Positions 5,972 to 29,191 of a DNA stretch of 33,240 nucleotides are shown here, in pieces. This stretch comes from Spirochaetales bacterium (GTDB lineage Bacteria; Spirochaetota; Spirochaetia; DSM-27196; SLAA01), in assembly GCA_007126415.1 (NCBI GenBank), contig SLBH01000308.1:1-33240 (forward strand). Reading direction: 5' to 3'. The notes below the pieces were generated by a model. That model worked only from the letters and a program-made list of their open reading frames with translations, searched no databases and was not told the origin of the DNA. A program made the translations under genes and the position numbers. How positions within the stretch are numbered: the first letter of the stretch is position 1; each line of letters opens with the position of its first letter.

Positions 5972-6829
5972 ATGCCGGTAACAACCAGCCAACAGATCGC
6001 CTATTACTATAATCAGTTTCACAATGTCGACGTCACCTTCACGCGCGAGGTGATACAGGCCACCGCACTGTTCCCGAAACAGGTGCACCTCAAGTGCCTC
6101 GGGCACCACTGGCCCTGCGTGATCTACTCGAGCTCAATGACCGGCGCAAAGATCATCGCCAACGTGAACGACGCGCTCACGGCCGCGTTGCGAAAATCGA
6201 ACAACCTCGTCTCGCTACGGTTTAGTTTCACGCAGCGCGACAAGGCCGACCCGCTTTCGTTCTTCGTGTCGGCGCGCGTCGCCGGCGTCAGCGCCTACAA
6301 CTCGGACAAAAAGCAGCTTCACTTCCTCACGCTGCAGTATACGCAACGCCCACCCGACGACCTAATAGAGATCCTCGGGTTGTTGCTTGAAGCCAACATC
6401 AATGCGAAGCGGCGACGAGAGGAGCGAATCGTGGTTACCGCCGACAGTCTGCGAAAACTCGGACTGAAGGGCAAGAACACGATCGCGGTCATCGAGGGCG
6501 TGCCACGCAAATGCATCATTCGCGACCTTTCGTTCGGCGGCGCCAAGCTGATCATTGTCGGCCTTGCGAAGTTTCTCGTGAACAAGAGCGTCACGTTGCG
6601 CATCGAGACTGAGGATCAGGAGGAGCCGCTTGAGATTTCGGGAACGGTGATCCGGTTTGAACCGGTTGAAGGACGTGAAGATATCTCAGCGTTCGCGATA
6701 CAGTACGACGACCAGTCGATCCCGGTACAGTACAAACTGCGCATCAACGGCTACTTGAAGGCATACGGCAAGACCCATCTCCATCAGCAGCAACAAGAAG
6801 AGCGGCCCGATTCGTCGAGCCCGCAGTAA
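5972..6829 (+). CDS. plzA: PlzA-like c-di-GMP receptor (N-terminal degenerate PilZ-like domain plus C-terminal canonical PilZ domain)
   Basis: C-terminal PilZ signatures are RRREER (RxxxR) and DLSFGGAKL (D-x-S-x-x-G). The N-terminal YYYNQFHNVDVTFTREV, the linker PPDDLIEILG and the C-terminal YKLRINGYL match my recollection of Borrelia PlzA. The size of 285 aa fits. Confidence 0.85.
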   Translation: MPVTTSQQIAYYYNQFHNVDVTFTREVIQATALFPKQVHLKCLGHHWPCVIYSSSMTGAKIIANVNDALTAALRKSNNLVSLRFSFTQRDKADPLSFFVSARVAGVSAYNSDKKQLHFLTLQYTQRPPDDLIEILGLLLEANINAKRRREERIVVTADSLRKLGLKGKNTIAVIEGVPRKCIIRDLSFGGAKLIIVGLAKFLVNKSVTLRIETEDQEEPLEISGTVIRFEPVEGREDISAFAIQYDDQSIPVQYKLRINGYLKAYGKTHLHQQQQEERPDSSSPQ

Positions 6830-6859: not shown

Positions 6860-7999
6860 ATGCAACATTCAGACCCCCTTGAGAACATCGTTTATATCTC
6901 TATTCCGTCGGATGCGGAGCGAACCATCGGTGAGTTTCGCCTTGACCCGGAGATCATGCTTCCGGTAGAGACCTCCGGAGCCGCCGAGGGCTACGACATA
7001 GGCTCATTGAGCTGGGAACAGATCATCTCGGCGATGCTGAAAATCCTTGCGTACCGCCCCGAGCACGAAGACGCCGCCTACTACCGAGAGTTCATCGGAG
7101 CAGTCAAGCCGGACCTCCCGGGAGAGCTTTCCGAGGCAGCGGTTCTTCAAGCGCGTAATCAAGGCTTCGAGCAAGCCGAAGAGATCTTTCTGGCGCTGCA
7201 TGGCCTCGTGCCGGAAGAACCCGGCCCGTTGCTCAACCTAGCGTTGCTGTACGAACAGCGCGCGCAGCACGCTGAGTCGCGCGGACAGCTCGAGAACAAG
7301 GAAGAGTGTCTCGAGCAGGCTCACGCGTACTATAAGCTACTGCTCACGCGCGACACCGTCCCGCCCGAGGCGGAGCTGAACGCGGGTTTCTTTTTCCTGC
7401 AGCGCCACAATTTTGCAAAGGCGCGCGAGCATCTCCAGCGCTTTGTGGATTCAGAACCCGAGGATGCCGAGCGCGTGGAGGAAGCTCGCAAAGTGATCGG
7501 CGAGATCGATTCGCAGAACTTGCTTGATGAGCTGTTTCAGGAAGCCTACGACGCGGTACAACTCGGCCGTGAGCACGAAGCGATCGAGAAGATGCAGACC
7601 TTTCTCGAGCGCGCGCCGGAGGTCTGGCGAGCCTGGTTTCTGCTCGGGTGGGCGCATCGGCGCTTACAGCAGTACCCCGAGGCCAAGACCGCATTCTTGA
7701 AGACGCTGGAGCTCGGGCCGCAGAAGCCGGACACCTTGAACGAGCTCGCGATCTGTCATATGGAACTCGGCGAGTTCCAGGAAGGTGAGCGGATGCTACG
7801 CGAGGCGATTCGCCTCGAGCCCGACAACACCAAAATCATCTCGAATATGGGCGTGCTGGCGTTAAAACGCGGTGACGCCGAGGAAGCGAAGGGCTTTTTC
7901 AAGACGGTTCTCACGATCGAGCCCTCCGACCCCGTAGCGCGCCGCTACCTGTCGGATATCGATCCCGACACGGACCCCGAAGCCGAGCTTCACACCTAG
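6860..7999 (+). CDS. Tetratricopeptide-repeat (TPR) protein
   Basis: 379 aa with repeated TPR-like A/L/Y/P helical pairs (WFLLGWAHRRLQQYPEAKTAFLKTLELGPQKPDTLNELAICHMELGEFQEGERMLREAIRLEPDN...). It starts 30 nt after the plzA-like gene, so it is probably co-transcribed. Confidence 0.8.
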   Translation: MQHSDPLENIVYISIPSDAERTIGEFRLDPEIMLPVETSGAAEGYDIGSLSWEQIISAMLKILAYRPEHEDAAYYREFIGAVKPDLPGELSEAAVLQARNQGFEQAEEIFLALHGLVPEEPGPLLNLALLYEQRAQHAESRGQLENKEECLEQAHAYYKLLLTRDTVPPEAELNAGFFFLQRHNFAKAREHLQRFVDSEPEDAERVEEARKVIGEIDSQNLLDELFQEAYDAVQLGREHEAIEKMQTFLERAPEVWRAWFLLGWAHRRLQQYPEAKTAFLKTLELGPQKPDTLNELAICHMELGEFQEGERMLREAIRLEPDNTKIISNMGVLALKRGDAEEAKGFFKTVLTIEPSDPVARRYLSDIDPDTDPEAELHT

Positions 8000-8019
8000 G
8001 CGCGCCGCCCCGGGCGCGC
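8000..8019 (+). terminator. GC-rich hairpin immediately after the TPR gene stop (possible terminator, no U-tract)
   Basis: GCGCGCC (8000-8006) pairs with GGCGCGC (8013-8019) around a 6-nt loop. No T-run follows. Confidence 0.3.
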
Positions 8020-8108
8020 TGCGTCCGCCGCTGCATATGCTCTGCCGAGCACTCACCCACAAAACTCGTTTCCGTACGGAAAAACTGGCATTTTTCGCCG
8101 AGTTTCGC

Positions 8109-8135
8109 TAAAGTTAATGCGTAGGTGGTCGATAC
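8109..8135 (+). promoter_or_regulatory. Sigma28 (FliA)-type promoter of flaB1: CTAAA-N15-GTCGATAC
   Basis: TAAA at 8109-8112, a 15-nt spacer, then GTCGATAC at 8128-8135, compared with the consensus TAAA-N15-GCCGATAA. This implies a 5' UTR of about 240 nt. Confidence 0.6.
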
Positions 8136-8250
8136 TCAGAATAAGGGGAAATCTTGGCCCGCGCACGCGGGCCGACAACGTTCTTCTCCCCCTATCTACA
8201 ATTGTCGGCGTGCAAATGAAGAGCTTGAGGTTTTTTAGCGCGATCTTGAC

Positions 8251-8291
8251 CCGGTTGTGGAACCAACCGGACGGAAGGAGGTGATACGGCA
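8251..8291 (+). promoter_or_regulatory. flaB1 leader element: hairpin with a TGGAAC loop, followed by ACGGAAGGAGGTGAT (perfect anti-SD complement with no start codon)
   Basis: CCGGTTG (8251-8257) pairs with CAACCGG (8264-8270), leaving the loop tGGAac. AAGGAGGTGAT at 8275-8285 is followed by no ATG, GTG or TTG at 4-12 nt. Confidence 0.4.
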
Positions 8292-8336
8292 GGCAAGCAT
8301 TCCACCAAGCCGCCGTCGGCGGCCTGAGTAACGGTA

Positions 8337-8377
8337 CAGAGCAAGGATGCTCTGAAACACAACTTTCACGGAGGAAC
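8337..8377 (+). promoter_or_regulatory. Putative CsrA binding pair in the flaB1 leader: GGA presented in a hairpin loop, plus GGA within the SD
   Basis: CAGAGCA (8337-8343) pairs perfectly with TGCTCTG (8348-8354) around an AGGA loop. The SD region is cacGGAGGAac at 8368-8378, and the ATG is at 8383. Confidence 0.55.
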
Positions 8378-8382
8378 AGGTT

Positions 8383-9240
8383 ATGATCATCAATCACAAC
8401 ACCAGTGCGGCCTTCGCAAACCGCCAGCTCGGAGTCAACGAGCGATCGGTCGTAGGCAACATGGAGAAGCTGTCGTCGGGCATGCGCATCAACCGTGCCG
8501 GCGACGACGCATCGGGTCTTGCAGTGTCCGAGAAAATGCGCTCGCAGATTCGAGGACTGCAGCAGGCGTCCCGAAACGCAGCCAACGGAATCTCGTTCAT
8601 TCAAACCACCGAGGGCTATCTGCAGGAGAGCCAGGACATCTTGCAACGCGTCCGCGAGCTCGCGATTCAGTCATCGAACGGCATCTACACCGATGAGGAT
8701 CGCATGCAGATTCAAGTCGAGATCTCGCAACTTGTAGCCGAGATCGACCGGGTTGCATCACACGCACAGTTCAACAACATGAATCTTCTCACCGGTCGTT
8801 TCGCGACCGACACCGGCGACAACGTAGTCACCGCCTCGATGTACTTCCACATCGGTGCCAACATGGATCAGCGGGAACGTGTCTACATCGGAACCATGAC
8901 CGCTGCGGCACTCGGCGTACGCGACCAAGCGAACGATATCATCTCGCTTTCAACACCCGACGCAGCCAACCAGGCAATCGGCGTTGTCGATTCGGCCCTT
9001 CAAATGGTCAGTAAGCAACGAGCGGATCTCGGCGCGTACCAAAACCGGCTCGAGATGGCGATTGAAGGCATCGATATCGGCGCCGAGAACATGGCGGCGG
9101 CGGAGTCCCGAATTCGCGATACCGATATGGCATCCGAGATGGTAGATTTCAGCAAGAACTCTATCTTGATGCAGTCGACCACCGCGATGCTCGCGCAGGC
9201 AAATATGCGCACGCAAAACGTATTGCAATTACTCCAATAG
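8383..9240 (+). CDS. flaB: Flagellar filament core protein FlaB (flagellin), copy 1
   Basis: [16 protein letters not shown]...[30 protein letters not shown] and the C-terminal [26 protein letters not shown] are canonical spirochaetal FlaB termini. 285 aa. Confidence 0.95.
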
Positions 9241-9279
9241 GGGAGTATGATTTAGTCTGACGTATAGTCGTGTTCTTTG

Positions 9280-9306
9280 AAAAAGCCCCTCCTTGGGTGC
9301 CGATAG
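9280..9306 (+). promoter_or_regulatory. Sigma28-type promoter of flaB2: (G)AAAA-N15-GCCGATAG
   Basis: GCCGATAG at 9299-9306 matches the GCCGATAA consensus at 7 of 8 positions. The A-rich -35 (gAAAA at 9279-9283) is only approximate. Confidence 0.55.
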
Positions 9307-9428
9307 CACTGAGGTTTCCCGGGCCGGGTAGGCCGGTTACGGTTCCTACCCGCCGGGAGAATCTCTGTGCTTATGAGTAGGCCGGACGCGGCGCGAGAGC
9401 GTCACGGTGAGCTCTATCGGCATCGGGT

Positions 9429-9470
9429 GAAAAGCTACGGATAGCTTTTCGTGCTCTATAACGCAAGGAG
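9429..9470 (+). promoter_or_regulatory. Putative CsrA binding pair in the flaB2 leader: GGA in a hairpin loop, plus GGA within the SD
   Basis: GAAAAGCTA (9429-9437) pairs perfectly with TAGCTTTTC (9442-9450) around a CGGA loop. The SD is CAAGGAGGG at 9464-9472, and the ATG is at 9476. Confidence 0.55.
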
Positions 9471-9475
9471 GGTTT

Positions 9476-10339
9476 ATGATCATTAACCACAACATGAGTT
9501 CGGCTTTTGCGAGCCGGCAGCTCGGCCAAACAACGGCTGAAACGCAAGGCAGCATCGAGCGACTGAGTTCCGGAATGCGGATCAACCGCGCCGGCGACGA
9601 CGCCTCGGGACTCGCGGTCTCGGAGAAGTTGCGCAGTCAAATTCGCGGGTTGAACCAGGCGGATCGCAACATCCAGAACGCGGTGTCGTTCATTCAGACA
9701 ACCGAGGGGTATCTGCAGAACACCCAGGATATTCTGCACCGGATTCGAGAGCTCTCGATCCAATCGGCTAACGGAATCTACACCGATGAAGACCGAATGC
9801 AGATCCAGGTGGAGGTGTCGCAGCTGGTGGCGGAGGTAAACCGCATAGCATCGCACGCACAGTTCAACACCATGAATATGCTAACCGGCGCGTTCGCGCA
9901 CGACAGCGCGATCGACCGTGTGATGCAGTTTCACATCGGCGCAAACATGGACCAAAACGAACAGGTTTACATTGGTACCATGACGGCGGCGGCGCTGGGG
10001 CTCGGCGGCATCCAGGGAGAAAACGGCGACAATGAAATCATTTCGCTGTCGACCCCGGACCTCGCCAACCAGGCCATCGGCATCGTCGACACCGCGCTGA
10101 GTCAGGTTTCCCGCCAGCGGGCAGACCTGGGAGCGTACCAAAACCGCTTCGAGATGGCTCAGTCGAGCGTGCAGATCGCGTCGGAAAACCTGGCGGCCGC
10201 CGAGTCGCAGATTCGTGACGCAAACATGGCCAACGAGATGGTGGATTTTGTGCGCAACCAGATTTTGACGCAGTCCACCACCGCGATGCTCGCACAGGCC
10301 AACACACAGCCACAGTCTGTGCTTCAATTGTTGGGTTAG
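9476..10339 (+). CDS. flaB: Flagellar filament core protein FlaB (flagellin), copy 2
   Basis: [16 protein letters not shown]...[30 protein letters not shown] and the C-terminal [20 protein letters not shown]. 287 aa; a paralogue of the previous gene. Confidence 0.95.
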
Positions 10340-10824: not shown

Positions 10825-10869
10825 TTGCGGCAGGACGCTCGAGGAGATTTCGGAGACGGCTGCCCAATT

Positions 10870-12912
10870 ATGGTTAAGACACTAGTTCTCATCGCAATAT
10901 TCGCATCCCTTCCACCGATTGCGGGCTATGGCAACTCACGCTCGCTCGTGCCGGGTATAGACTCAGGCGTAGACTCTCAACGCATGATCGATGAGATCAT
11001 GGAACAGGAAGGTCGCCGCAAAGAACGGATGCACGACGACATCGAGCGCTTCGAGTTTCAGCGGCGGGTTTGGGGCGAGATCGCGCGCGATCTCAACAGC
11101 CTCCGTGACAGCGCTCGCAGACTCTACGGCTTCGAGAATCCCTTCAACCTTCGAACCGCCGAAAGCTCGGATTCACAGGTACTCACCGCAAGCGCATCAC
11201 GCCAAGCAGAGCGTGGACGCGCCGAGATAGAGGTGAAGCAAATAGCGCGTGCCGACGCCTTTCGTAGCGGCCGGATTCCCCTCGATCAACGGATAGAGGC
11301 CGGCACATATCGCTTCACCGTCGGCGAGCTGGAAGCCGAGTTTGAGTTCGACGGCGGTGACGTAGCCGCGTTTACGCGCGAGTTGAATCGCCGTATCGGC
11401 GATACGGTGCGCGCGCGAACGGTTCGCGACACACGCGAAAGCCAAGTCATTCTATTTGAGTCTCAGATCACCGGGGCCGAGAACCGGCTCGCGTTTCACG
11501 ATGCCGCCGAGCAGCTTGCCGAGGAGTTTCAGGTGCTCGAGCGTGCGCCCGAGAGCGCGCGTAGCGTAGAGGTAACCGACGACCCCGAACAACCTCTCAC
11601 GGTAGGCCCGCAAGACCAAGCAAGCTTGAGCCTTGAGCCGGTTTTCGCGCTCGCGGACGGCATGGTGCTCGAAATAGAGGTCGAGATCGTCGAGCATCCC
11701 GCCGATGCATGGGAACCGCCCGAGCCGCCGTCCGGCCCCCGGATTCCGGAGCTCGGCGAGGTTACGCTGGAGGACGTCACGGTGCAGGATGCCGAGTCGC
11801 GCGCCCCGCTTCCGGAGCGGCCCGAGCCCGAACCGCCCGAGGTTATCGAGGACGAGCGAGTGTTTTACGTGCTCGGAGACGGGCGTCGCATCCAGCTTCC
11901 GTCGCTCGGACCGACCGACGGCTACCGCACGTTGCGTATCCCGATCAGCGAGCAGCTGTCGGAGATGAGCGCACTCGAGATCGTGAACCGCAACACGCAT
12001 CGGGAGATCTTAATTCGGGCCGCCGAGATCTACGACCCCACAGCTCCCGGAGAGTTTCGGCCGCTCAACCCGGTGCAGATTGCGCAAGATGCGCGCATCA
12101 GCATCGACGGAATCGAGGTAACTCGCGACACCAACACTATAGACGATCTCATAGACGGCACCACGGTCTACCTCCATCGGCCGGGTCCCCATCCGATTGA
12201 ACTCGAGATCGACCATGACCGGGACGCCGCCAAGGACGCGATCATAGATTTCGTCGGTCGCTACAATCAGCTGATCCGCGATGTAAACATCCTCACGAGA
12301 ACCGAGGAGAGCGTTATAGATCAGATCGAGTACTTCGACGACGATGAGCGCCAGCAGGCCCACGAGCGTCTCGGCTTGCTGCAGGGCGACAGCATCCTGA
12401 ACCGGCTTCGGCGCACCCTCCAAAACATGATGATGGAGCCCTACCCTACTCGCGAGGGTGACAACCTAAGGCTCCTCGCGCAGATCGGAGTATCCTCAAA
12501 CGCAAGCGGTTTCGGAGGCGGAGTCGACGCGTCCCGACTGCGCGGATATCTCGAGATCAACGAGGCCACCCTCGATGAAGCGCTCGCGACCCGCTTCCAA
12601 GCAGTGCGCGATCTCTTTGGGTTCGACAGTAGCGGCAATCATGTGATCGACGCCGGCGCCGCGTACCGCGCGCACGAGATGATCGGGCCGTATACGCAGA
12701 GTGGCGGAATTATCGCCACCCGCACCGGCACGATCGACGGACGCGTAACGCGCACCGAAGACGATATCGAACGTGAAGAGGACCGGCTCGACCGCCGCGA
12801 ACAGAGTCTCCGGCAAGACTTTGGTCGAATGGAGGGCGCGATGCGCGAGCTCGAGGAGCAGCAACGCGCGATCGAGAACTTCAGCCGACAGAACGCGCCG
12901 CGGGGGCGCTGA
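10870..12912 (+). CDS. fliD: Flagellar filament capping protein FliD (hook-associated protein 2)
   Basis: FliD N-domain (PGIDSGVDSQRMIDEIMEQE...VWGEIARDLNSLRDSARRLYG...VLTASAS...IEVKQIA) and C-terminal coiled coil (IDGRVTRTEDDIEREEDRLDRREQSLRQDFGRMEGAMRELE). The start is ambiguous among TTG 10825, ATG 10870 (given here) and GTG 10948. Confidence 0.9.
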   Translation: MVKTLVLIAIFASLPPIAGYGNSRSLVPGIDSGVDSQRMIDEIMEQEGRRKERMHDDIERFEFQRRVWGEIARDLNSLRDSARRLYGFENPFNLRTAESSDSQVLTASASRQAERGRAEIEVKQIARADAFRSGRIPLDQRIEAGTYRFTVGELEAEFEFDGGDVAAFTRELNRRIGDTVRARTVRDTRESQVILFESQITGAENRLAFHDAAEQLAEEFQVLERAPESARSVEVTDDPEQPLTVGPQDQASLSLEPVFALADGMVLEIEVEIVEHPADAWEPPEPPSGPRIPELGEVTLEDVTVQDAESRAPLPERPEPEPPEVIEDERVFYVLGDGRRIQLPSLGPTDGYRTLRIPISEQLSEMSALEIVNRNTHREILIRAAEIYDPTAPGEFRPLNPVQIAQDARISIDGIEVTRDTNTIDDLIDGTTVYLHRPGPHPIELEIDHDRDAAKDAIIDFVGRYNQLIRDVNILTRTEESVIDQIEYFDDDERQQAHERLGLLQGDSILNRLRRTLQNMMMEPYPTREGDNLRLLAQIGVSSNASGFGGGVDASRLRGYLEINEATLDEALATRFQAVRDLFGFDSSGNHVIDAGAAYRAHEMIGPYTQSGGIIATRTGTIDGRVTRTEDDIEREEDRLDRREQSLRQDFGRMEGAMRELEEQQRAIENFSRQNAPRGR

Positions 12913-12968
12913 TCGCTGATCGTTCGGGCCGCGCGGCGCGACTGCAAAGCGCCGGCAACAAGGAGGTT

Positions 12969-13928
12969 GTGGTGGACATCAAGATCGACCATAACAGTAT
13001 TGATTTCACGCTGGAGCGGGAACGCACCGTCGGCGAGGTCATCGCCGAACTCCGGCCCTTCATCGAAAGCCACGCGCGCACAATCGCCACGCTCGCTGTG
13101 GACGACGAGCCGCTCGCGATAGAAGATCCCGGAACGTGGCAAGATCGCGAGTTAGACCCTATAGAGCGCATTCAGATCGAGACCGTGGGACCGTTCGACC
13201 GCCAGGTTGAGGATCTCGGCACCCTGATCGAGTACTTCGAGCTACTACGTTCCGCGCTGCATGAGCGCAGCAGCGAAGCGATCCGCGAAATCCTCGAGGA
13301 GCTGCCGCATATCCGAAGCGCAGTCGGGCCGCTCACCGGTGAAGCTCCGTCGGACGACCAACCTCGGCTTCTCGCTGAGCTCGACGGCTTAATGGGGCTT
13401 ACCGGCGGCGAACGATCGCCGGCCTCCGCACTCGCGGCGATGCCGGCGGCGAGGCAACTGGCTGAGGTCTCTCAAGAGCAGCTTGAAGCGCTCAGCGCCG
13501 CGATCGACCGCATCCGGGTAGTGCTCCACACGCGTAGACGCGAACTCGCCGATCCGCTTCGCGAGCTCGGCCACACCGCTGAAGCGCTTCACGGGTACAG
13601 CGATTCAATGACCGAGGTCCCGGTACTCCTACAAACCGGTCGCGATCGCGAAGCGATGGAACGTATCGCGCGGTTCTCGGAGTTGACCGGTAAGCTCATG
13701 CGGCTCTGTTCGCTCGCGATAACGCACCGCGAACGGTTGCTGCCCGCCGACTGGGACTCGAACAACCTCGAATCACAGGCCGAACAACTGTACGCCATGC
13801 TTAACGAGCTGGTGGAGGCCTTCTCGGCCGGCGACTCGGTTCTGATCGGCGACTTGGTTGAGTATGAGCTTGTTCCGGGGCTACAAGAGTTGCTGCAGCA
13901 CATCCCGGTTACCGGCGACGAGTCGTGA
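12969..13928 (+). CDS. Hypothetical acidic protein (orf319) in the position usually held by fliS
   Basis: AGGAGG at 12961-12966 is followed by GTG GTG (12969/12972). The 319-aa ORF has coding-like GC3. Its stop overlaps the next start (GTGA at 13925-13928). I recognise no family. The C-terminal half is helical (LQTGRDREAMERIARFSELTGKL...GDSVLIGDLVEYELVPGLQELL). Confidence 0.75.
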   Translation: MVDIKIDHNSIDFTLERERTVGEVIAELRPFIESHARTIATLAVDDEPLAIEDPGTWQDRELDPIERIQIETVGPFDRQVEDLGTLIEYFELLRSALHERSSEAIREILEELPHIRSAVGPLTGEAPSDDQPRLLAELDGLMGLTGGERSPASALAAMPAARQLAEVSQEQLEALSAAIDRIRVVLHTRRRELADPLRELGHTAEALHGYSDSMTEVPVLLQTGRDREAMERIARFSELTGKLMRLCSLAITHRERLLPADWDSNNLESQAEQLYAMLNELVEAFSAGDSVLIGDLVEYELVPGLQELLQHIPVTGDES

Positions 13929-15022
13929 TTCCGCTTCTGCAGCAACGCGAGATGCCGGTCACCGGCTTCGGTGAGTTCGACCCTCGAATCACCGCCATTC
14001 TCATCGGTGCGGTAGCGCTCGTGATTATCGCCGGCGTCGTTAACTCGGTGCTGACCGGCGGCGGTAGTAGCAGATCCAGAACGCAACGCTTCTCGAAACG
14101 CGGCTTCATCCGGGGCGCCAAGCGCGCCGGCCTCTCCCGCGTACAGGCTGTAACGCTACTGACCGTCGCGCGCAACCAAGGCATCGCCGCCCCGATGCGT
14201 CTGTTGCAGGACGGCCCGCTGCTCGATAAGGCGATCCGTGACGGACTCTACGACATAGATGAATCGGTGCGCGACGAGCCGGAGCGCGAGCGACGAAAGA
14301 GCGAGTTGTTCCAGATTCGAAACCTCATTGCGGTCTACAGTCAGAGCACTCGGAGCGTGCGCTCGAGTAAGACTTTGCGAATCGGTCAGGACCTCGATTT
14401 CAGCACCGACGGCCGTACCTGGCACACAACGCGCGTGAGCTCGCAAACCGGTGAGCGCTTCGGCGTTGAGACGCCGTACGACGACGCCAACCGTGAGGTC
14501 CGCCCCGGGAAAGGCGCGAAGGTGCGCTTGCGTTTCCGAACCGAGTCGGGCAACCTCTACAGCGTCACCACCACGGTGCTCGGCTACGGGATCGCACGGC
14601 GCATGCCGACCCTCTTCTTGGCGCATTCGGATCAGATCAGCCGCGTACAGCACCGGAAGTATCCGCGCCGTGAGTTTCACCATCCGTGCTATTACTATCC
14701 CGTCTCGGTGGTGACCAGCGGTCGCGGCCGTCGCGCCAAGCGACAGGCGGTCGTAAACCATAACGATCGTAGATTTGGGCGCTTCGAGGATCTCTCGGCC
14801 GGCGGCGCTGCGGTGCGCACACAGCGTCCGCTCCCGGCAAAGTCTCTGCTCAAGATCGAGTTTGAGACCGCCGACGGTGTGCCGGTCTCGGTTTTCGGCA
14901 AGATACGCTCGGTCGAGAAAGCGACATACCGGTCCGGGTTGATGCATATCATGTTCGCGGGTGCCTCTCGCAAGCACCTAAACGCGATTCAGAGCTACGT
15001 CTACGGGTACGTCGACGAGTGA
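13925..15022 (+). CDS. Membrane-anchored YcgR-like PilZ-domain protein (putative c-di-GMP receptor)
   Basis: One N-terminal TM helix (ITAILIGAVALVIIAGVVNSVL), a beta-rich middle region, then PilZ motifs HRKYPRR (RxxxR; an alternative is RRAKR) and DLSAGGAAV (D-x-S-x-x-G). The start is GTG 13925 (4-nt overlap with orf319) or ATG 13952. Confidence 0.85.
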   Translation: MIPLLQQREMPVTGFGEFDPRITAILIGAVALVIIAGVVNSVLTGGGSSRSRTQRFSKRGFIRGAKRAGLSRVQAVTLLTVARNQGIAAPMRLLQDGPLLDKAIRDGLYDIDESVRDEPERERRKSELFQIRNLIAVYSQSTRSVRSSKTLRIGQDLDFSTDGRTWHTTRVSSQTGERFGVETPYDDANREVRPGKGAKVRLRFRTESGNLYSVTTTVLGYGIARRMPTLFLAHSDQISRVQHRKYPRREFHHPCYYYPVSVVTSGRGRRAKRQAVVNHNDRRFGRFEDLSAGGAAVRTQRPLPAKSLLKIEFETADGVPVSVFGKIRSVEKATYRSGLMHIMFAGASRKHLNAIQSYVYGYVDE

Positions 15023-15080
15023 AGCGCTCGCTCCGCGCGCGATTGATGCTTGGCTCACGACGTGCTACTATTCGCGCCGG

Positions 15081-15344
15081 ATGCGGCTCCTGACGCTTTC
15101 GAACATCACGCGTAACGACTCACCCATTCATTATCGGCGCACGTTCCAGGCTGCTGCTCGTTTCGACGTGCCGGGAAACGACACCGCCGAGGTATCGGTG
15201 GAGTTCGTTCTGGAGTCTCTGCCGACCGGAGAAACCTCGGTCACGGCGAGGTTTGTTGAGCACCCTCCGTTTCCGACGGTACCGGCGCTGCGCCTGCTGA
15301 AGCGGCATATCAGCGAGCTCAACCGCACCGGGCGGTTACCGTAG
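15081..15344 (+). CDS. Hypothetical protein (orf87)
   Basis: 87-aa ORF with coding-like third-position GC. It ends 6 nt before the tsaE ATG. There is no clear SD and no recognisable motif. Confidence 0.5.
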   Translation: MRLLTLSNITRNDSPIHYRRTFQAAARFDVPGNDTAEVSVEFVLESLPTGETSVTARFVEHPPFPTVPALRLLKRHISELNRTGRLP

Positions 15345-15350
15345 GTAGTT

Positions 15351-15812
15351 ATGGCAACCACCGCTACCATAACACTCCACGAGCAAGACACCACACGCAT
15401 CGCCGCAGAACTCGCCGAGCGCCTTGAGCCCGGCTCGGTCGTTGGCCTGCAAGGCGGGCTTGGACTCGGCAAGACCGTGTTCGCCAAAGCGCTTGCCGCC
15501 GCTCTTGGAGTCGAGGACACCGTTACCAGCCAGAGCTACACGATGGTCGCGGAGTACGAAGGCCGCCTCCCGTTCTTCCACGCCGATCTCTACCGTGTTC
15601 GCAGCGCTCCCGAGGTTGAAACCATCGGTCTCGAGGAGTACTTCGACCGAGGGGGTGTCACGGTTGTGGAGTGGTGCGACCGAGCACCGGAGATACTCCC
15701 GCCCGACGCCGTGGTCGTGAGCTTCGAGCTCACCGAAGGCGGCACGCGCCGAATTACCATCGAGGAACGCACAAGGAACGCGCATGACTCTCTTGAGCCT
15801 CGACAGCAGTAG
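15351..15812 (+). CDS. tsaE: tRNA threonylcarbamoyladenosine (t6A) biosynthesis ATPase TsaE
   Basis: P-loop LQGGLGLGKTVFAK, then TSQSYTMV and FHADLYR blocks typical of TsaE/YjeE. Confidence 0.9.
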   Translation: MATTATITLHEQDTTRIAAELAERLEPGSVVGLQGGLGLGKTVFAKALAAALGVEDTVTSQSYTMVAEYEGRLPFFHADLYRVRSAPEVETIGLEEYFDRGGVTVVEWCDRAPEILPPDAVVVSFELTEGGTRRITIEERTRNAHDSLEPRQQ

Positions 15813-16503
15813 CGAGATCCTAAGCGTGGCGCTCGCGGTCTACACCGCAGACCGCCGCGAGCACCTCGCCGAACGTAGCGTAGACGCCGGTCTCGGGCAC
15901 GCGCGTCGCGTCATGCCGATGATCCATGAGCTGCTTCACGCCTCGGGGCGTCGCCCGGGCGAGCTCGACGCAATCGTGGTCGGGGCCGGCCCCGGCTCGT
16001 TTACCGGCCTGCGGATCGCCTTTGCGACCGCGAAGGGCCTCGCGGCCGGTTCCGGTGCTCCGTATCTCGGCGTGAGCTCGCTCGAGGCGTTCGCAGCGCC
16101 GTATGCACAGCACCCGGGATTAGTGCTACCGGTACTCGACGCTCGCAAGCGCCGCTATTACGCCATGCTGATGCACCAAGGCCGGCGGCTGAGCGACGAG
16201 CTCGATCTCGGGGCAGGCGACCTTGCCCACGCCGCTCGCGAAGCCGCTCTGCGCCGCTCAGCGGCCTGCGCAGACACCCCGGTTCTGCTCACCGGCCCGG
16301 GGGCCGTGATGCTGTACAACGAGCTCGGGGACGACTCACGCTTCCTGCCGGCCTCCGACCCGCGGCGCCCGCCCGGCGCGGCTCTTATCGAGCTCGCGCT
16401 CCCGCTGATCGCGCGCGGCGCGTACGCCGGACCCGACGCGGGCCCGATCTACATCCGCAAGAGCGAGGCCGAGATCGGTATTCTTCGCAAGGCCGACGAC
16501 TGA
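15784..16503 (+). CDS. tsaB: tRNA t6A biosynthesis protein TsaB
   Basis: LSLDSSSEILSVALA and AIVVGAGPGSFTGLRIAFATAKGLA are YeaZ/TsaB hallmarks. It overlaps tsaE by 29 nt. Confidence 0.9.
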   Translation: MTLLSLDSSSEILSVALAVYTADRREHLAERSVDAGLGHARRVMPMIHELLHASGRRPGELDAIVVGAGPGSFTGLRIAFATAKGLAAGSGAPYLGVSSLEAFAAPYAQHPGLVLPVLDARKRRYYAMLMHQGRRLSDELDLGAGDLAHAAREAALRRSAACADTPVLLTGPGAVMLYNELGDDSRFLPASDPRRPPGAALIELALPLIARGAYAGPDAGPIYIRKSEAEIGILRKADD

Positions 16504-21160: not shown

Positions 21161-23071
21161 GTGTCCGCAAAGCAACGATGGTTCTCACAGCGGCGGCCGC
21201 GTTCCTCCTGGACAAAAGCCGTGGTCGCGACAAAGACACGTCGAGCAGCGCTCCCGCTCGCTATCGTCATGCTGTTGAGTCTGACGGTTCTCGGCATTGG
21301 ATTAAGCGTAGACCTCGAGTCCGCAACGGCGGAGAGTTCCGGCAACGACGGCGATCACTCGGCGGCCCCTAAAGCGGCCCCCAAAGCGGCTCCCGGCTCC
21401 CCCGCTGTGCCCGCTCTGGTACGCGAGCGTGGGTCGGACGGCGATGCATTGCCGGGATTTTGGCGTTCGGATGAGGTATCCGCAGTGGTTTCGGAGCTCA
21501 TGGGGGCGATGAGCGATGAGGAACGCGTTGCCCAGGTCTTCTTGCTCGGCTGGCAAGGAGTAGAGCCGAGCGATCGCATCATGGACTGGATCACGCAGCG
21601 TGGGCTCGGCGGCGTCAAGATATTCGGTTGGAACGCCGAGGACCTCACGGTCTTGAACGAATCAATTCGCTCGATGCAGGCCGCCGCCCTCGCTACTGAA
21701 CACGCGGTCCCGCTGTTCACCGCTACCGATCAAGAAGGCGGGTGGATTCGACACGTACGCGGAACCACCTCGATGACACCGGGGAACATGGCGATCGGGG
21801 CCACCGGTCTGCCGGATGACGCCTACCTCAGCGGATACCACATTGGACGCGAGCTGCGGGCGCTTGGCATAAACATGAATTTTGCGCCTACGGTGGACGT
21901 ATACACCAACTTCGAGGCGCACGTAATCGGCTCGCGAGCCTTCTCGGACGACCCGTTACAGACAGCCATTCTCGGCAACGCCTTTTATCGCGGCCTGGAG
22001 CACAACCGCGTAATCGCCACCGCTAAGCATTTCCCCGGTCATGGGAACGCATCCGAGGATTCCCACGGCGTGTTGCCGGTACTCGACGAAACAATCGAGG
22101 ACCTGCGTGATCGCGACCTTGTGCCGTACGAGTACTTGATCCGGGAGGGAATTCCCGCGGTCATGAGCGGTCACCTGAGTTTTCCCGAGATAATCGAGCC
22201 CGGGCTGCCGGCTTCGCTTTCGCGATACTTCAACACTACGCTGCTCCGCGAGGAGTTCGGGTTCGAAGGGCTCATGATCACCGACGATCTACAGATGAGC
22301 GGCGCGCGCGTTTACGAGCGCCGCCGGGGGCTGAGCTTCGGCCGTCTCGCGCTCGAGGCGCTCAAAGCCGGTGCCGATATGGTGATGCTGTCGCAGACCC
22401 CGGCGCTCAACGGCGAAGTATGGCGAACCGTGTTCGGCGAGTATCGGAATAACGACGAGTTTAGAGCCGAGGTCGATGCCTCTGTGGAGCGCATCCTGCG
22501 CACCAAGCTGGATTATCTTCGCGATGCGCAGCGCGTGACACTGCAACCTCGCGACGATCAGCTCGCCTTACACATATCCAATCAACCCGGACAAGAGTTC
22601 TTTTTCGACCATGCCGCGCGCAGCGTCTCGGTTATCAAGGACAACGCGCTCCCGCTCAGCAGCGATCGTGCAACCGACGTGCTTCTGGTAGGCGGAAACC
22701 GGTGGTTTCTTTCGGAAGGCCGCTCACGACTCCCCGGAGCCGACACTCTGCGGCTGCGCTCATCGTTCTACGACGTCTCTGCCGCCGATCGTAGCGCGAT
22801 CGAACGTGCAAGATCCAACTACGACGTGATCGTGTTTTCCCTGACCAGCCCGGCGACGCAAGAGCTCCTGGAGTTGTTGCGCGAGCACAACGGGAGCGTG
22901 ATCGTGCTCTCAACGCTGACGCCGGCCTATCTCGCGGAGCACAAATGGGTAGACGCAGCGGTTGCGGTTTACGGTATCGGGCGCAAGTCATTCGAGACCG
23001 GATTTGCAACACTGCTTGGTGAGATCAAACCTTCCGGACGCGTGCCGTTCCGTCTGCCCACCGGATGGTGA
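21161..23071 (+). CDS. Glycoside hydrolase family 3 protein (beta-N-acetylhexosaminidase/NagZ-like) with N-terminal signal or anchor and an extra C-terminal domain
   Basis: GH3 blocks GLGGVKIFGWN, KHFPGHGNASEDSHG, MSGHLSFPE and ITDDLQMSGA. Hydrophobic N-terminus RRAALPLAIVMLLSLTVLGIGLSV. The start is uncertain (GTG 21161 as listed; in-frame GTG and ATG lie further downstream). Confidence 0.85.
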   Translation: MSAKQRWFSQRRPRSSWTKAVVATKTRRAALPLAIVMLLSLTVLGIGLSVDLESATAESSGNDGDHSAAPKAAPKAAPGSPAVPALVRERGSDGDALPGFWRSDEVSAVVSELMGAMSDEERVAQVFLLGWQGVEPSDRIMDWITQRGLGGVKIFGWNAEDLTVLNESIRSMQAAALATEHAVPLFTATDQEGGWIRHVRGTTSMTPGNMAIGATGLPDDAYLSGYHIGRELRALGINMNFAPTVDVYTNFEAHVIGSRAFSDDPLQTAILGNAFYRGLEHNRVIATAKHFPGHGNASEDSHGVLPVLDETIEDLRDRDLVPYEYLIREGIPAVMSGHLSFPEIIEPGLPASLSRYFNTTLLREEFGFEGLMITDDLQMSGARVYERRRGLSFGRLALEALKAGADMVMLSQTPALNGEVWRTVFGEYRNNDEFRAEVDASVERILRTKLDYLRDAQRVTLQPRDDQLALHISNQPGQEFFFDHAARSVSVIKDNALPLSSDRATDVLLVGGNRWFLSEGRSRLPGADTLRLRSSFYDVSAADRSAIERARSNYDVIVFSLTSPATQELLELLREHNGSVIVLSTLTPAYLAEHKWVDAAVAVYGIGRKSFETGFATLLGEIKPSGRVPFRLPTGW

Positions 23072-23077
23072 GTCGCG

Positions 23078-23950
23078 ATGCCGTGGTACAGCGCCGGAAC
23101 CGCCGACCTCGATCGCGTGCTCGCGTTCTTGCTGTCACAAGAGTGGAGCTGCGTTGGGTTCACCTCACAGCTGCGCGACGGCCGGCGCGCGCGCCTGCCG
23201 AACCGCCGCGCCGCGGTGGTACATTTCTACACCGAGCGAGACCTCGTTGATCCGATTTGCGCGGCGGTTCTGGAAACGACACACGGCTTCTGTTACCCTG
23301 TCCTCGCAGGGTTGAGTTCCCGGCAGCGCGAGCCGGTAGTCCGCGAGCTCGCGCCCCGGCTCGAGACCGCGTTAGGGCGCTATCCCACCTTTATGGGGCT
23401 CGCCGAGGATGTTGAGGCGCTCGAGCGAACGATTGGGCGGCCGCCTCGCCATCGCGTGGAGTATTACATGATGCAGGCTGTTGCCCCGCCCGGTTCGCGT
23501 CAACCACCGCGGCTGAGTCGCGAGCCGCTCGTGAGGGAGGCCGGACCGGCCGATACGCGACGGCTTCTGCCGCTACAAGCGAAATACGAGCGTGAGGAGG
23601 TCTTGTTGCCGAATCGCGCTCTGAATATGGAGGCCACCCGGAGGCAGCTCCGCAGCGACCTAAAACAACAGGTTGTGTATCTCGCAGAACTCAACGGTGT
23701 CCCGATCGCAAAGGCCGGAACAAACGCGCGGGGATTCCGCTACGATCAAATCGGAGGCGTGTTTACCGAGCCCGAGTACCGCGGTTGCGGCGTCGGCGGG
23801 CATCTCATGGAGATACTGATGCGTAGGGTGCGCCGGGAGGGCAAAGCCGTCTCGTTATTTGTGAAGACGCAGAATCACGCCGCGCGTCGCATGTACCGAA
23901 ATCTCGGGTTCACCGACGGCCGGTTCTTTGTTATCAGCTACTATCATTAA
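23078..23950 (+). CDS. GNAT-family N-acetyltransferase
   Basis: C-terminal acetyl-CoA motif A (TEPEYRGCGVGGHLMEILM....EGK.VSLFV...N..ARRMYRNLGF). The ATG is 7 nt after the GH3 stop. Confidence 0.8.
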   Translation: MPWYSAGTADLDRVLAFLLSQEWSCVGFTSQLRDGRRARLPNRRAAVVHFYTERDLVDPICAAVLETTHGFCYPVLAGLSSRQREPVVRELAPRLETALGRYPTFMGLAEDVEALERTIGRPPRHRVEYYMMQAVAPPGSRQPPRLSREPLVREAGPADTRRLLPLQAKYEREEVLLPNRALNMEATRRQLRSDLKQQVVYLAELNGVPIAKAGTNARGFRYDQIGGVFTEPEYRGCGVGGHLMEILMRRVRREGKAVSLFVKTQNHAARRMYRNLGFTDGRFFVISYYH

Positions 23951-23972
23951 CGCAATAGTACAGGGTTTGAAA

Positions 23973-25493
23973 ATGGCACACGGAATCGGAGCAACGTCGA
24001 CAAGCGCGCCCCCGCTGCGAATCATGATGGTTACCAGCGAAGCGGTACCGTTCGCGAAGGTCGGCGGTCTCGCCGATGTGGTTCCGGCGTTAGCGGCTAA
24101 GCTCGCCCGCCGCGGCCACGACGTCCGGATCGTGATGCCGCGCTACGCCGATGCGGCGAGGAACGGCGCCGCGCCTCTGTCCGGCGCTCTCGGAGTTCCT
24201 ATGGCACACGAGGAGTTCTGGACCGAGGTGCTCGAGAGTCGCCTCGAGAATGCGGGCTATCCGGTTACGGTTTACCTCGTTGAGCACCTCGAACTGTTCG
24301 GCAAAAGCGCAATATACGCGCGCCCCGGCGACGGCGGCTCAAACGAGGACCTGTTACGCTTCGCGGTACTCTCGCGAGCCGCGTTTCAGATCTGCCGCAA
24401 GCTGAACTGGAGCCCGGATATCATGCACGCACACGACTGGCCTACCGCACTCGTTCCCGTCTACCTTCGCACGGTGGAGACGAAGCCCCCGTTCACCGAA
24501 ACCGCCGGTGTGTTCAGCATTCACAACCTCGGATATCAAGGCGTCTTTGAGCTCGGTCAGCTCCATCGCCTCGCGCTGGACACCGGCGATCGCGGCCGCG
24601 AGGCGCTCGAGTTTTACGGCAGAATCAACTCGCTCAAAGGCGGCATTCTCTGCGCCGATATGGTCACGACGGTCTCGCCGAGTTACGCTGAAGAGATACA
24701 GCAGCCCGAGTTTGGGTTCGGTCTCGACGGAGTGCTGCGTTCACGCTCGAACGAACTGTACGGAATCCTGAACGGTATCGACAAGGAGCTCTGGGATCCG
24801 TCGACCGATCCACTACTGCCCGCAAACTTCAATGCCGATGACCTCTCGGGCAAGCTCGCGTGCAAGACCGCGCTACAGCAGCGTTTTGAGTTCCCGGCTA
24901 ACCCCAAAACACCTCTGGTCGGCATGATTGCGCGGTTGGTCGACCAAAAGGGGCTCGCTGAGCTGCTCGAGCCGCACTACGGCTGCCTGCCCGGAGTCCT
25001 CGCCGAGCCGGATGTACAGATGGTGGTTCTCGGGACCGGAGATCCACGACATGAGCAACGCCTCCAGGAGCTCGCGCAGCGATATCCGAACCTCGCCTAC
25101 GAAAGCGCATTCGACGAGCCGCTTGCACATCTCATCGAAGCCGGGAGCGATTTTTTCCTGATGCCTTCTCGCTACGAGCCGTGCGGATTGAACCAGATGT
25201 ACAGCCTGCGATACGGCAGCATCCCGGTCGCAACTCACACCGGAGGCCTTCGCGACACGGTCATAGATGCCGACGATCCCTCCGGTGAGGGCACCGGCTT
25301 CCTGTTCGCAAGCAGTACCCCGACCGAGATCTACCACGCGGTGGAACGCGCGGTGCGGGTGTACCGCACGCAACCACAACGGTTCGCCGAGATGCGCTTG
25401 CGCGGCATGCGCACCGAGTTTGGATGGGATCGGGCGGCGCAGAGCTACGAACAGCTCTATATGCGCGCGCTGCAGCGCCGCATGCGACACTAG
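23973..25493 (+). CDS. glgA: Glycogen synthase GlgA
   Basis: IMMVTSEAVPFAKVGGLADVV (the KVGGL motif), HAHDWPTAL, PSRYEPCGLNQMYSLRYG. ATG 23973 is preferred over the track start 23928, which overlaps the GNAT gene. Confidence 0.9.
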   Translation: MAHGIGATSTSAPPLRIMMVTSEAVPFAKVGGLADVVPALAAKLARRGHDVRIVMPRYADAARNGAAPLSGALGVPMAHEEFWTEVLESRLENAGYPVTVYLVEHLELFGKSAIYARPGDGGSNEDLLRFAVLSRAAFQICRKLNWSPDIMHAHDWPTALVPVYLRTVETKPPFTETAGVFSIHNLGYQGVFELGQLHRLALDTGDRGREALEFYGRINSLKGGILCADMVTTVSPSYAEEIQQPEFGFGLDGVLRSRSNELYGILNGIDKELWDPSTDPLLPANFNADDLSGKLACKTALQQRFEFPANPKTPLVGMIARLVDQKGLAELLEPHYGCLPGVLAEPDVQMVVLGTGDPRHEQRLQELAQRYPNLAYESAFDEPLAHLIEAGSDFFLMPSRYEPCGLNQMYSLRYGSIPVATHTGGLRDTVIDADDPSGEGTGFLFASSTPTEIYHAVERAVRVYRTQPQRFAEMRLRGMRTEFGWDRAAQSYEQLYMRALQRRMRH

Positions 25494-25549: not shown

Positions 25550-26794
25550 TCAGTCGGCCGCACGCGCGAGCTTACGTCGTAGGCGCGCGCCCCGGTGCTC
25601 AAGCTCCGCGCGCAGCGCGCGCGAACAGCGCGCCGAGTCTGCCGACTCAACCAGCTCGAGCGCCTCGCCGACGGCACCGCGCTGATGCTCGAGAATCTTG
25701 GCGAGCTCAACCGCGAGGCGCGGATCACAGCTTGCGTTCACAGCTGAGCGATAGAGCGCTTCGGCATCGCTGTAGCGGCCGGCGCGCTTCCACTCAGCCC
25801 CCAGCACCAGCGCAGCGCGGGCGAGTTCTTCCGAGTTTGCCCCGCCTTCGGACAGGAGCGTCGATAGGAGGCGCTCGGCGTTGCGCCGCAACGCGACGGT
25901 CCCGCCCTCGTCGGCCGCCGCATCGAGCCTGTCGGCCGACGACCGACGTAGCATCCAGAGCGCCGCTTGAAGCGTATCAAAGCGGGGGCGCCCACGCTCG
26001 AGACATCCGAGCGGATCGCTGAAAACCTCGTGTATCGTAAGCAGTAGAGCGCTGAGGCTCAGGATATCGTGGTAGTGGTGCGCGACCACCGGTGCGAGTA
26101 GCGCGGGATCACGGCGGTCGAGAAACTCGAAGTAGCGCTCCGGAACCTCGAAGCTCGGCAGGTCGTCTTCGCGCTCGATCTCGAGCACCTGCCGCTCGAG
26201 CTCGGAGAGGCCACAGCTCGGCAGCAGACTCCGCCACAACCGGCGCGCCGGGTAGAGCAAGTCGAGGTGGTATCGCAAGACATGCTGACGGCGGTGCATC
26301 AAGAAGCGTGTCTTGAGCTGATGGGCGTCGAAGGCCTTGCCGTTATACGAGACATACAACGCATCCTGCGGAAACCGTTCCGCGATCAACTCCAGAAACG
26401 CCGACTCGGCACCGTACTCGGTCAAGAGCCACTGCTCGAGTACGAGTTCGCGCTCCTCGAGAAACGCCACTCCGGCGAGAAACACCTTGGTACCGGCACC
26501 ACCGCTCAATCCGGTGGTCTCGAGGTCGAAGAAGCGCAGGTTCTCGCGACCGAATCCGCTCGGCAGGAGCGGAGAGCCGCGCTCGAGCAGCTCGGCGAGT
26601 TTAGGCGCCGGCTCCCGTACAACCCGGAAACACACACCGGCCTCCGCCGCTACGAAGCCGGAAAGGCCCGGAGCCTGCCCACCGCCGGGCCCTGCGCCTC
26701 TCGGGCTACGCGACGCGCCGGCGCGTTCCCCACCCGCCGCGCCGCCGCGTATCCGCTTGAGAAGCTCGAGCCTTTGGTAGAGGTCCGCGCTCAT
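25550..26794 (-). CDS. YprB/MrfB-like RNase H-fold (DEDD-type) exonuclease with C-terminal TPR-like tail
   Basis: LRFFDLETTGLSGGAGTKVFLAGV, VSYNGKAFD and HHYHDILSL match the YprB-type exonuclease layout. The C-terminal 130 aa are helical-repeat. The ATG at 26794 forms an ATGA overlap with the helicase stop. The track start at 26935 would overlap the helicase by 145 nt. Confidence 0.8.
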   Translation of the reverse strand: MSADLYQRLELLKRIRGGAAGGERAGASRSPRGAGPGGGQAPGLSGFVAAEAGVCFRVVREPAPKLAELLERGSPLLPSGFGRENLRFFDLETTGLSGGAGTKVFLAGVAFLEERELVLEQWLLTEYGAESAFLELIAERFPQDALYVSYNGKAFDAHQLKTRFLMHRRQHVLRYHLDLLYPARRLWRSLLPSCGLSELERQVLEIEREDDLPSFEVPERYFEFLDRRDPALLAPVVAHHYHDILSLSALLLTIHEVFSDPLGCLERGRPRFDTLQAALWMLRRSSADRLDAAADEGGTVALRRNAERLLSTLLSEGGANSEELARAALVLGAEWKRAGRYSDAEALYRSAVNASCDPRLAVELAKILEHQRGAVGEALELVESADSARCSRALRAELEHRGARLRRKLARAAD

Positions 26795-29118: not shown

Positions 29119-29191
29119 AAGCTCTCCGGCACCGATGGTAGCATGTTTTGCGCAGAAAGCGGAATATCGATCTGCCGCGATCGGCATTCGC

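Follow-up and report, generated by a model that had tools for sequence, protein, structure and literature searches.

A conserved gene trio behind fliD in Spirochaetales encodes a TP0873-family protein and a predicted membrane-anchored, YcgR-like PilZ protein

Introduction

Which proteins are encoded directly behind the filament-cap gene fliD in spirochaetes, and what might they contribute to a periplasmic flagellum? The question is raised by a 33,240-nucleotide (nt) stretch from a Spirochaetales bacterium (contig SLBH01000308.1 of assembly GCA_007126415.1), a spirochaete fragment with a GC content of 57-65%. In this stretch, which we refer to in its entirety as the window, fliD is followed by three co-directional open reading frames (ORFs): orf319, a gene for a PilZ-domain protein, and orf87. 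An original prediction, made from the sequence without database searches, described the trio as an uncharacterised module located in the slot where fliS is expected.

So far, the control of spirochaete motility by cyclic diguanosine monophosphate (c-di-GMP) has been understood through PlzA-type receptors only. A different PilZ architecture is known from descriptive accounts that rest on sequence analysis. In TDE1318 of Treponema denticola, Galperin & Chou (bioRxiv 10.1101/814665) described a PilZ domain with two elements ahead of it, an xPilZ barrel and a pentahelical subdomain, the first helix of the latter being a putative membrane anchor (PilZN4-PilZ); they reported only PilZN3-PilZ in T. 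pallidum and Borrelia. The architecture of the PilZN4-PilZ type was later named YcgR^NpzN and recorded in Treponema, Salinispira and Spirochaeta (ACS Omega 2025, PMC11800159). In this study, we found that many free-living Spirochaetales carry, within the filament operon, the gene for a second, predicted membrane-anchored YcgR-like receptor. Moreover, this gene is closely coupled to a member of a large uncharacterised family that follows fliD and whose namesake is TP0873 from the syphilis agent.

Results

We compared the locus by tblastn with 83 related Spirochaetota loci. All three ORFs are conserved at the protein level (26-80% identity), far beyond what chance would allow. The orf319 homologue lies directly downstream of fliD in 82 of the 83 loci, the remaining one being ended by a contig edge, and the PilZ gene follows it in 78 of 80 evaluable loci. 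orf87 was found in 63 of the 76 loci that extend to tsaE; tsaE itself is present in 76/83 loci and tsaB in 75/83. Thus, the linkage of the trio to fliD, which the original prediction had proposed to check in related genomes, was upheld. In two loci, L066 (4730-5915) and L077 (5001-6221), the orf319 homologue after fliD is followed directly by orf87, with no PilZ gene, and in the more distant locus L085 (7001-7927) unrelated genes in convergent orientation come after fliD and the orf319 homologue. Median gaps amount to 25 nt between fliD and orf319, 3 nt between orf319 and the PilZ gene, and 53 nt between the PilZ gene and orf87. The orf319 and PilZ genes overlap in 22 of 78 pairs. In addition, the two families carry opposite net charges, averaging -25.8 for orf319 (n=83; -33 in the window) and +33.6 for the PilZ protein (n=75; about +26 in the window). 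This tight coupling, together with the opposite charges, suggests that the two proteins are co-produced and form a complex.

In the window, the trio lies on the + strand. orf319 (12969..13928) runs from GTG 12969 to TGA 13928, begins after a 56-nt gap from the fliD stop at 12912, and is preceded by a Shine-Dalgarno sequence, AAGGAGG (12960..12966), that can be read directly from the DNA. Its stop codon overlaps the start of the 365-codon PilZ gene (13925..15022) in the tetranucleotide GTGA at 13925-13928. orf87 (15081..15344, 87 codons) begins 58 nt past the PilZ gene and stops 6 nt short of tsaE (15351). No terminator-like site was found in the intergenic regions from fliD through tsaB; the sole match on the + strand (15184-15201) falls within orf87. 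The layout of the three ORFs, their spacings, the overlap and the ribosome-binding site are therefore as originally read, and a single correction concerns the start of orf319. A second GTG, at 12972, is located 5 nt from the ribosome-binding site and agrees with the N-termini of homologues, such as P0001, which is 97% identical and has 318 amino acids (aa). Because of this better spacing and agreement, orf319 probably starts at 12972 rather than at 12969, and would then encode a 318-aa protein.

As judged from sequence comparisons and a structural model, the middle gene encodes a membrane-anchored, YcgR/MotI-like two-barrel PilZ protein with intact c-di-GMP motifs. Residues 243-361 match PF07238 (PilZ) with an E-value of 2.2e-10 and a score of 41.2 bits, against a gathering cut-off of 22.5, and the AlphaFold2 (AF2) model has a predicted local distance difference test score (pLDDT) of 84. 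The protein begins with a peptide of the form LLQQ..F..PD (13925..13996), predicted to be periplasmic, in which L4, L5, Q6, Q7, F15 and D19 are conserved. The peptide is followed by a single transmembrane (TM) helix at residues 25-43 (13997..14053; KD19 hydropathy 2.67, family mean 2.93; helix 20-43 in the model) and by an NpzN-like helical subdomain at residues 58-141 (14096..14347), with helices at 58-67, 72-84, 90-94, 97-114 and 118-141, which fits the published descriptions. A first PilZ-like β-barrel, devoid of c-di-GMP motifs, spans residues 156-241 (14390..14647), as seen from the model strands, and aligns with the N-terminal domains of MotI, PlzD and YcgR.

The RxxxR motif, R244-K-Y-P-R248 (14654..14668), is located in the inter-barrel linker, and the [D/N]hSxxG motif, D289-L-S-A-G-G294 (14789..14806), in the second barrel. 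In alignments of 25-37 homologues, R244, R248, S291, G293 and G294 are invariant and D289 is found in at least 90% of the sequences. From these motifs, the protein is predicted to bind c-di-GMP. In the model, the second barrel comprises the strands between residues 254 and 344 and a C-terminal helix at 349-360, that is, the six-stranded barrel plus helix of a PilZ domain. Between the two motifs, a basic insert, G266-RGRRAKRQ-274 (14720..14746), conserved as GRGRKAKKQ, makes up the tip of an extended β-hairpin, where strand 254-265 turns into strand 272-277 (local pLDDT about 90), and stretches the spacing from RxxxR to [D/N]hSxxG to 41 residues. A Foldseek search returned 16 full-length matches at E<=1e-3, every one of them to a two-domain receptor (MotI/DgrA, PlzD, MrkH, YcgR or PP4397). 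The best structures were MotI 5vx6 (E 5e-10), PlzD 2rde (E 9e-9) and YcgR 5y6f (E 2e-7), and the matches to MotI, PlzD, MrkH and YcgR extend over about 220 columns. The PilZ barrel also matches isolated PilZ domains, for instance 4i86 (TMt 0.68). Neither PilZN (PF07317) nor PilZNR (PF12945) matches the window protein at E<=1; among its homologues, about half have a PF12945 record.

All 37 PilZ homologues analysed share one TM segment and an N-out/C-in charge pattern, with on average 1.4 lysines and arginines ahead of the TM helix versus 7.2 after it. From this asymmetry, the LLQQ..F..PD peptide is predicted to be periplasmic and both barrels cytoplasmic. Altogether, the domain match, the motifs, the two-barrel model and the similarity to MotI, PlzD and YcgR bear out the original identification of a membrane-anchored YcgR-like PilZ protein, including the TM helix, the C-terminal PilZ motifs and the long basic insert that had been recognised from the letters.

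orf319 was considered impossible to assign to any family in the original prediction, a statement that is now outdated. In precomputed Pfam records, PF26154 (DUF8042) is present on 101 of 101 orf319 homologues and PF27299 (TP0873_N) also on 98 of them; the homologues bearing both include P0001 and P0002 (80% identical). The assignment is made through these records, as the Pfam copy scanned with the window protein lacks the PF27299 and PF26154 models; orf319 itself had no match in this copy or in the NCBIfam copy. By homology, orf319 thus belongs to an existing, uncharacterised spirochaete family, TP0873_N + DUF8042. The family is large: a profile search among 1.8 billion representatives recovered 453 clusters at E<=1e-30, and in the best 150 of these every protein has the same single architecture and 262-357 aa. 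Among 185,579 species genomes, a pattern scan identified 369 with a gene for an orf319 relative; the best 80 of these are all metagenome-assembled genomes of Spirochaetota, the closest coming from soda-lake sediments. A literature search on TP0873, TP0874, TDE1470-1473, DUF8042 or PF26154 found no papers.

The AF2 model of orf319 (pLDDT 91, predicted TM-score 0.83) shows a ββαβββ α/β domain at residues 1-73, which resembles a β-grasp solely in its strand order, and two helical bundles that span residues 77-309. Two motifs are invariant in the family, LLQTGxDREAM (220-230) and DSVLIGDLxEYExxP (289-303), and are placed by the model in the loops that join helices 1-2 and 3-4 of the second bundle. 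We infer that both motifs share one end of this bundle, where they may make one polar, acidic site. orf319 contains no hydrophobic segments and is predicted to be cytoplasmic.

Searches for a relative of known function gave no candidate. Foldseek found no PDB match to the orf319 model at E<=1e-3 and no chaperone among the top 50 matches listed, a PDB profile search returned de novo bundles only, and the N-terminal domain searched alone had no match. The only structural relatives considered, generic tandem four-helix bundles such as α-catenin and vinculin, were discarded at TM-scores of 0.32 or lower. A FliS, FliT or FlgN identity was ruled out by Pfam, NCBIfam, hhalign and Foldseek; the hhalign probability of the orf319 profile was 0.5% against E. 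coli FliS, 0.1% against E. coli FliT and 0.1% against the window FlgN. The comparisons suggested originally have revealed no match to FliS, FliT or another characterised family. We also considered a 649-aa protein, P0140, which combines TP0873_N and PilZ (8001-9950 of locus L084), as a Rosetta-stone fusion, and rejected it as a frameshift artefact of an error-prone assembly. fliD and flgK are likewise split in the long contig of this locus.

The third gene, orf87, represents a family of uniform size (84-90 aa). An alignment of 26 sequences revealed invariant residues Y18, E45, P65 and G84, and the protein had no match in Pfam or the PDB. orf87 may act as an additional small accessory protein.

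Of the 36 window ORFs scanned, none matched PF02561 (FliS), in agreement with the earlier observation that no FliS-like ORF is present. In T. denticola, fliS is TDE0119, far from flaB1/flaB3 (TDE1477/1475), and in Borrelia burgdorferi fliS (bb0550) forms a pair with a gene designated fliT (bb0549) away from fliD. Given these locations, fliS is not expected beside fliD in spirochaetes and the notion of a slot awaiting fliS fails. The presence of a designated fliT in B. burgdorferi also weakens the idea that orf319 substitutes for a missing FliT.

The window fliD gene (10825..12912, + strand; FliD_N E 6e-19, FliD_C E 7e-48) has its likely start at ATG 10870. FliD proteins usually start with MSDISIPGV. 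At the canonical position, a start codon is missing in the window (10825-10950) and in at least five other lineages, and the FliD ORFs in question carry an N-terminal extension resembling a Sec signal peptide. Such extensions were seen in L007, L019, L025, L031/L042, L067 and L068, and probably in L022/L032/L047/L055. From ATG 10870, the window FliD reads MVKTLVLIAIFASLPPIAGYG followed by NSRSLVPGI, and the L068 protein reads MRRIFYAFVVFLLFTVAGIDGIAA followed by SDVSIPGV. As judged from these N-termini, the cap protein could be routed through Sec in these bacteria with periplasmic flagella. A literature search on signal-peptide-like FliD retrieved no title or abstract reporting such a protein.

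The genes surrounding the trio are arranged in the order PilZN3-PilZ, tetratricopeptide repeat (TPR) protein, flaB, flaB, flaG, fliD, orf319, PilZ, orf87, tsaE and tsaB, and beyond tsaB the opposite strand carries csrA, fliW, flgL, flgK and flgN. The housekeeping genes tsaE and tsaB (15351..16503, + strand; Pfam TsaE and TsaD matches), involved in N6-threonylcarbamoyladenosine (t6A) modification of tRNA, close the co-directional cluster and sit between two flagellar gene blocks. Directly upstream of both flaB genes lie a PlzA-type PilZN3-PilZ gene (5972-6829, E 2e-61) and the TPR gene (6860-7999), a pair also kept in L001, L002, L084, L085 and L087. Since PilZ receptor genes are found on both sides, the filament genes are flanked by two different PilZ receptors. 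In many relatives, tsaB is followed by an HD/HD_5 gene of HD-GYP type, a putative c-di-GMP phosphodiesterase (L002 11252-12328; L003 11411-12526; L086 6435-7529; L087 10184-11272). Neither the window nor L001, its closest relative, has this gene, csrA coming directly after tsaB instead. Farther away, the flagellar cluster is flanked by a GH3 hydrolase gene (21161-23071) and by glycogen genes at 23928-25493 and 29248-30531 (GlgA-like starch synthase, GlgC-like nucleotidyl transferase). An overlapping pair on the - strand, 25550-26935 and 26791-29187, encodes a DEAD/Helicase_C/MZB helicase of MrfA type and an RNase_H_2-superfamily protein, and is unrelated to the PilZ module. We presume that this pair resembles the MrfA/MrfB repair pair of Bacillus subtilis.

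Discussion

The trio is best explained as a conserved end segment, specific to spirochaetes, of the late flagellar operon flaB-flaB-flaG-fliD. For its function, we tentatively favor a membrane-tethered c-di-GMP brake or clutch for periplasmic flagella that would resemble MotI and YcgR, be expressed with the late genes and act with an acidic partner of the TP0873 family; we hold this to be a real possibility, somewhat short of an even chance. In this proposal, the short periplasmic peptide and the TM helix would tether the receptor in the inner membrane, and the helical domain, the PilZN-like barrel and the canonical PilZ barrel would face the cytoplasm. By analogy with MotI and YcgR, c-di-GMP would bind to the RxxxR linker and the DxSxxG site, and the two barrels would close upon binding. 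Held in the membrane beside the motor, which the same analogy points to as the target, the receptor would engage the stator (MotA) or the rotor, and the periplasmic flagellum would be slowed or disengaged. For an action on MotA, FliG or FliM, as in YcgR/MotI-like proteins, indirect evidence comes from TDE1318, the T. denticola protein with this architecture, which was undetectable in both the motB and the flgE deletion mutants. The acidic, cytoplasmic orf319 protein would be made in step with the basic receptor and would most likely be its stoichiometric partner or adaptor.

Several observations weigh against this interpretation. In L066, L077 and L085, homologues of orf319 have no PilZ gene next to them, and a family retained in such loci probably has an independent function. 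Along the same line, T. pallidum was reported to have PilZN3-PilZ only, yet the Pfam family is named for its protein TP0873. Furthermore, tsaE and tsaB are as syntenic as the trio, so that synteny by itself is no proof of a flagellar role. The charges of the orf319 and PilZ families show no compensating covariation (r = +0.25). TDE1318 is a protein of very low abundance. Lastly, the window protein is assigned to the YcgR^NpzN/TDE1318 type by published description and not by alignment.

If orf319 acts by itself, its place of action may be the filament rather than the motor. orf319 might work in cap or filament assembly or in export, and the tethered PilZ protein might sequester or release it in response to c-di-GMP, as MapZ does with CheR1, so that filament growth and not rotation is controlled. 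This possibility, which we rate at about half the likelihood of a brake or clutch, would account for an orf319 gene that follows fliD in 82 of 83 loci even where the PilZ gene, an optional but tightly coupled downstream gene, is missing, and also for the opposite charges of the two families. In a mirror-tree analysis, the distance matrices of FliD, orf319 and PilZ intercorrelate at r ~0.81, above those of FlaB, TsaE and TsaB; protein length confounds this comparison, which points no more to PilZ than to FliD as the partner of orf319. Moreover, neither profile nor structure searches relate orf319 to any export chaperone or gate component, and regulation of export by a YcgR-type protein is not known. 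Another reading, in which orf319 is a FliD-specific export chaperone, analogous but not homologous to FliT and unrelated to the PilZ protein, appears improbable. The invariant location right after fliD would follow the same logic as flgN-flgK-flgL in the window, acidic helical bundles are typical of flagellar chaperones, and the C-terminal motif contains an invariant tyrosine. On the other hand, hhalign probabilities against E. coli FliS and FliT and the window FlgN are below 1%, orf319 is 2.5 times as large as FliT, with an additional α/β domain, bb0549 is already designated fliT beside fliS in B. burgdorferi, and orf319 is equally conserved where the N-terminus of FliD resembles a signal peptide.

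A more prosaic scenario is that at least one member of the trio plays no part in the flagellum and is simply co-transcribed, as tsaE and tsaB appear to be. These genes for tRNA t6A synthesis match the trio in synteny, and no family evidence ties orf319 or orf87 to flagella. Conversely, the orf319 family is confined to Spirochaetota among the best 80 of the 369 genomes, orf319 keeps its place next to fliD even in L085, with its different downstream genes, and the PilZ protein falls by Foldseek within a clade of flagellar regulators. Hitch-hiking is rather unlikely in our estimation. Somewhat more speculatively, the acidic TP0873-family protein, the basic YcgR^NpzN receptor and orf87 might assemble into a single complex that is switched by c-di-GMP and peculiar to periplasmic flagella. 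The stator, FliL or the collar would be the docking site for the periplasmic peptide of the receptor, whose cytoplasmic part would either trap or set free the TP0873-family protein, and the level of the second messenger would thus be tied to both cap/filament assembly and rotation. We see only a slim chance that this full scheme holds.

A brake or clutch tethered in the membrane, the reading that we prefer, has to be set against the receptors already described. MotI/DgrA of B. subtilis (5vx6) and PlzD/VCA0042 of Vibrio cholerae (2rde), both PilZNR-PilZ proteins, resemble the window protein in both barrels and in the location of RxxxR in the inter-domain linker. Unlike it, they are soluble proteins of about 210-225 aa; the window protein adds some 145 N-terminal residues, comprising the peptide, the TM helix and the helical domain, and a 14-residue basic hairpin. 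Sequence identity to them is 13-18%, and a different orientation of the domains keeps the TM-scores low (0.23-0.41). E. coli YcgR (5y6f), a flagellar brake of PilZN-PilZ type, shares the two-barrel architecture (E 2e-7), whereas the window protein is membrane-tethered and has no PF07317 match. In E. coli, ycgR is a late (class 3) flagellar gene.

PlzA and TDE0214, the characterised spirochaete c-di-GMP receptors of PilZN3-PilZ type, are likewise PilZ proteins and affect motility, but they have a different N-terminal domain and no membrane anchor, and PilZN3-PilZ is encoded by a separate gene of the same window cluster. With FliS and FliT of the enterobacterial fliD-fliS-fliT operon, orf319 shares the position right after fliD, the helical fold and the acidic character; it differs from them in having about 300 aa with an additional α/β domain and no sequence, profile or structural match.

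The closest likeness is to the YcgR^NpzN/PilZN4-PilZ proteins, which have in common with the window protein a long TM helix, a subdomain of 4-5 helices, a PilZN-like barrel, a canonical PilZ domain and a Spirochaetales host. The fliD/TP0873-family neighbourhood, the basic hairpin insert, the conserved periplasmic peptide and the extreme positive charge are absent from the published accounts of this type. The advance is modest: the PilZ protein is a fresh example of a kind already described from sequence, and its linkage, coupling and charge complementarity are new but circumstantial. Accordingly, the trio is a reasonable experimental lead rather than a novel type of system or a demonstrated mechanism, and orf319 and the PilZ protein provide two testable candidates for the missing parts of periplasmic-flagellum regulation.

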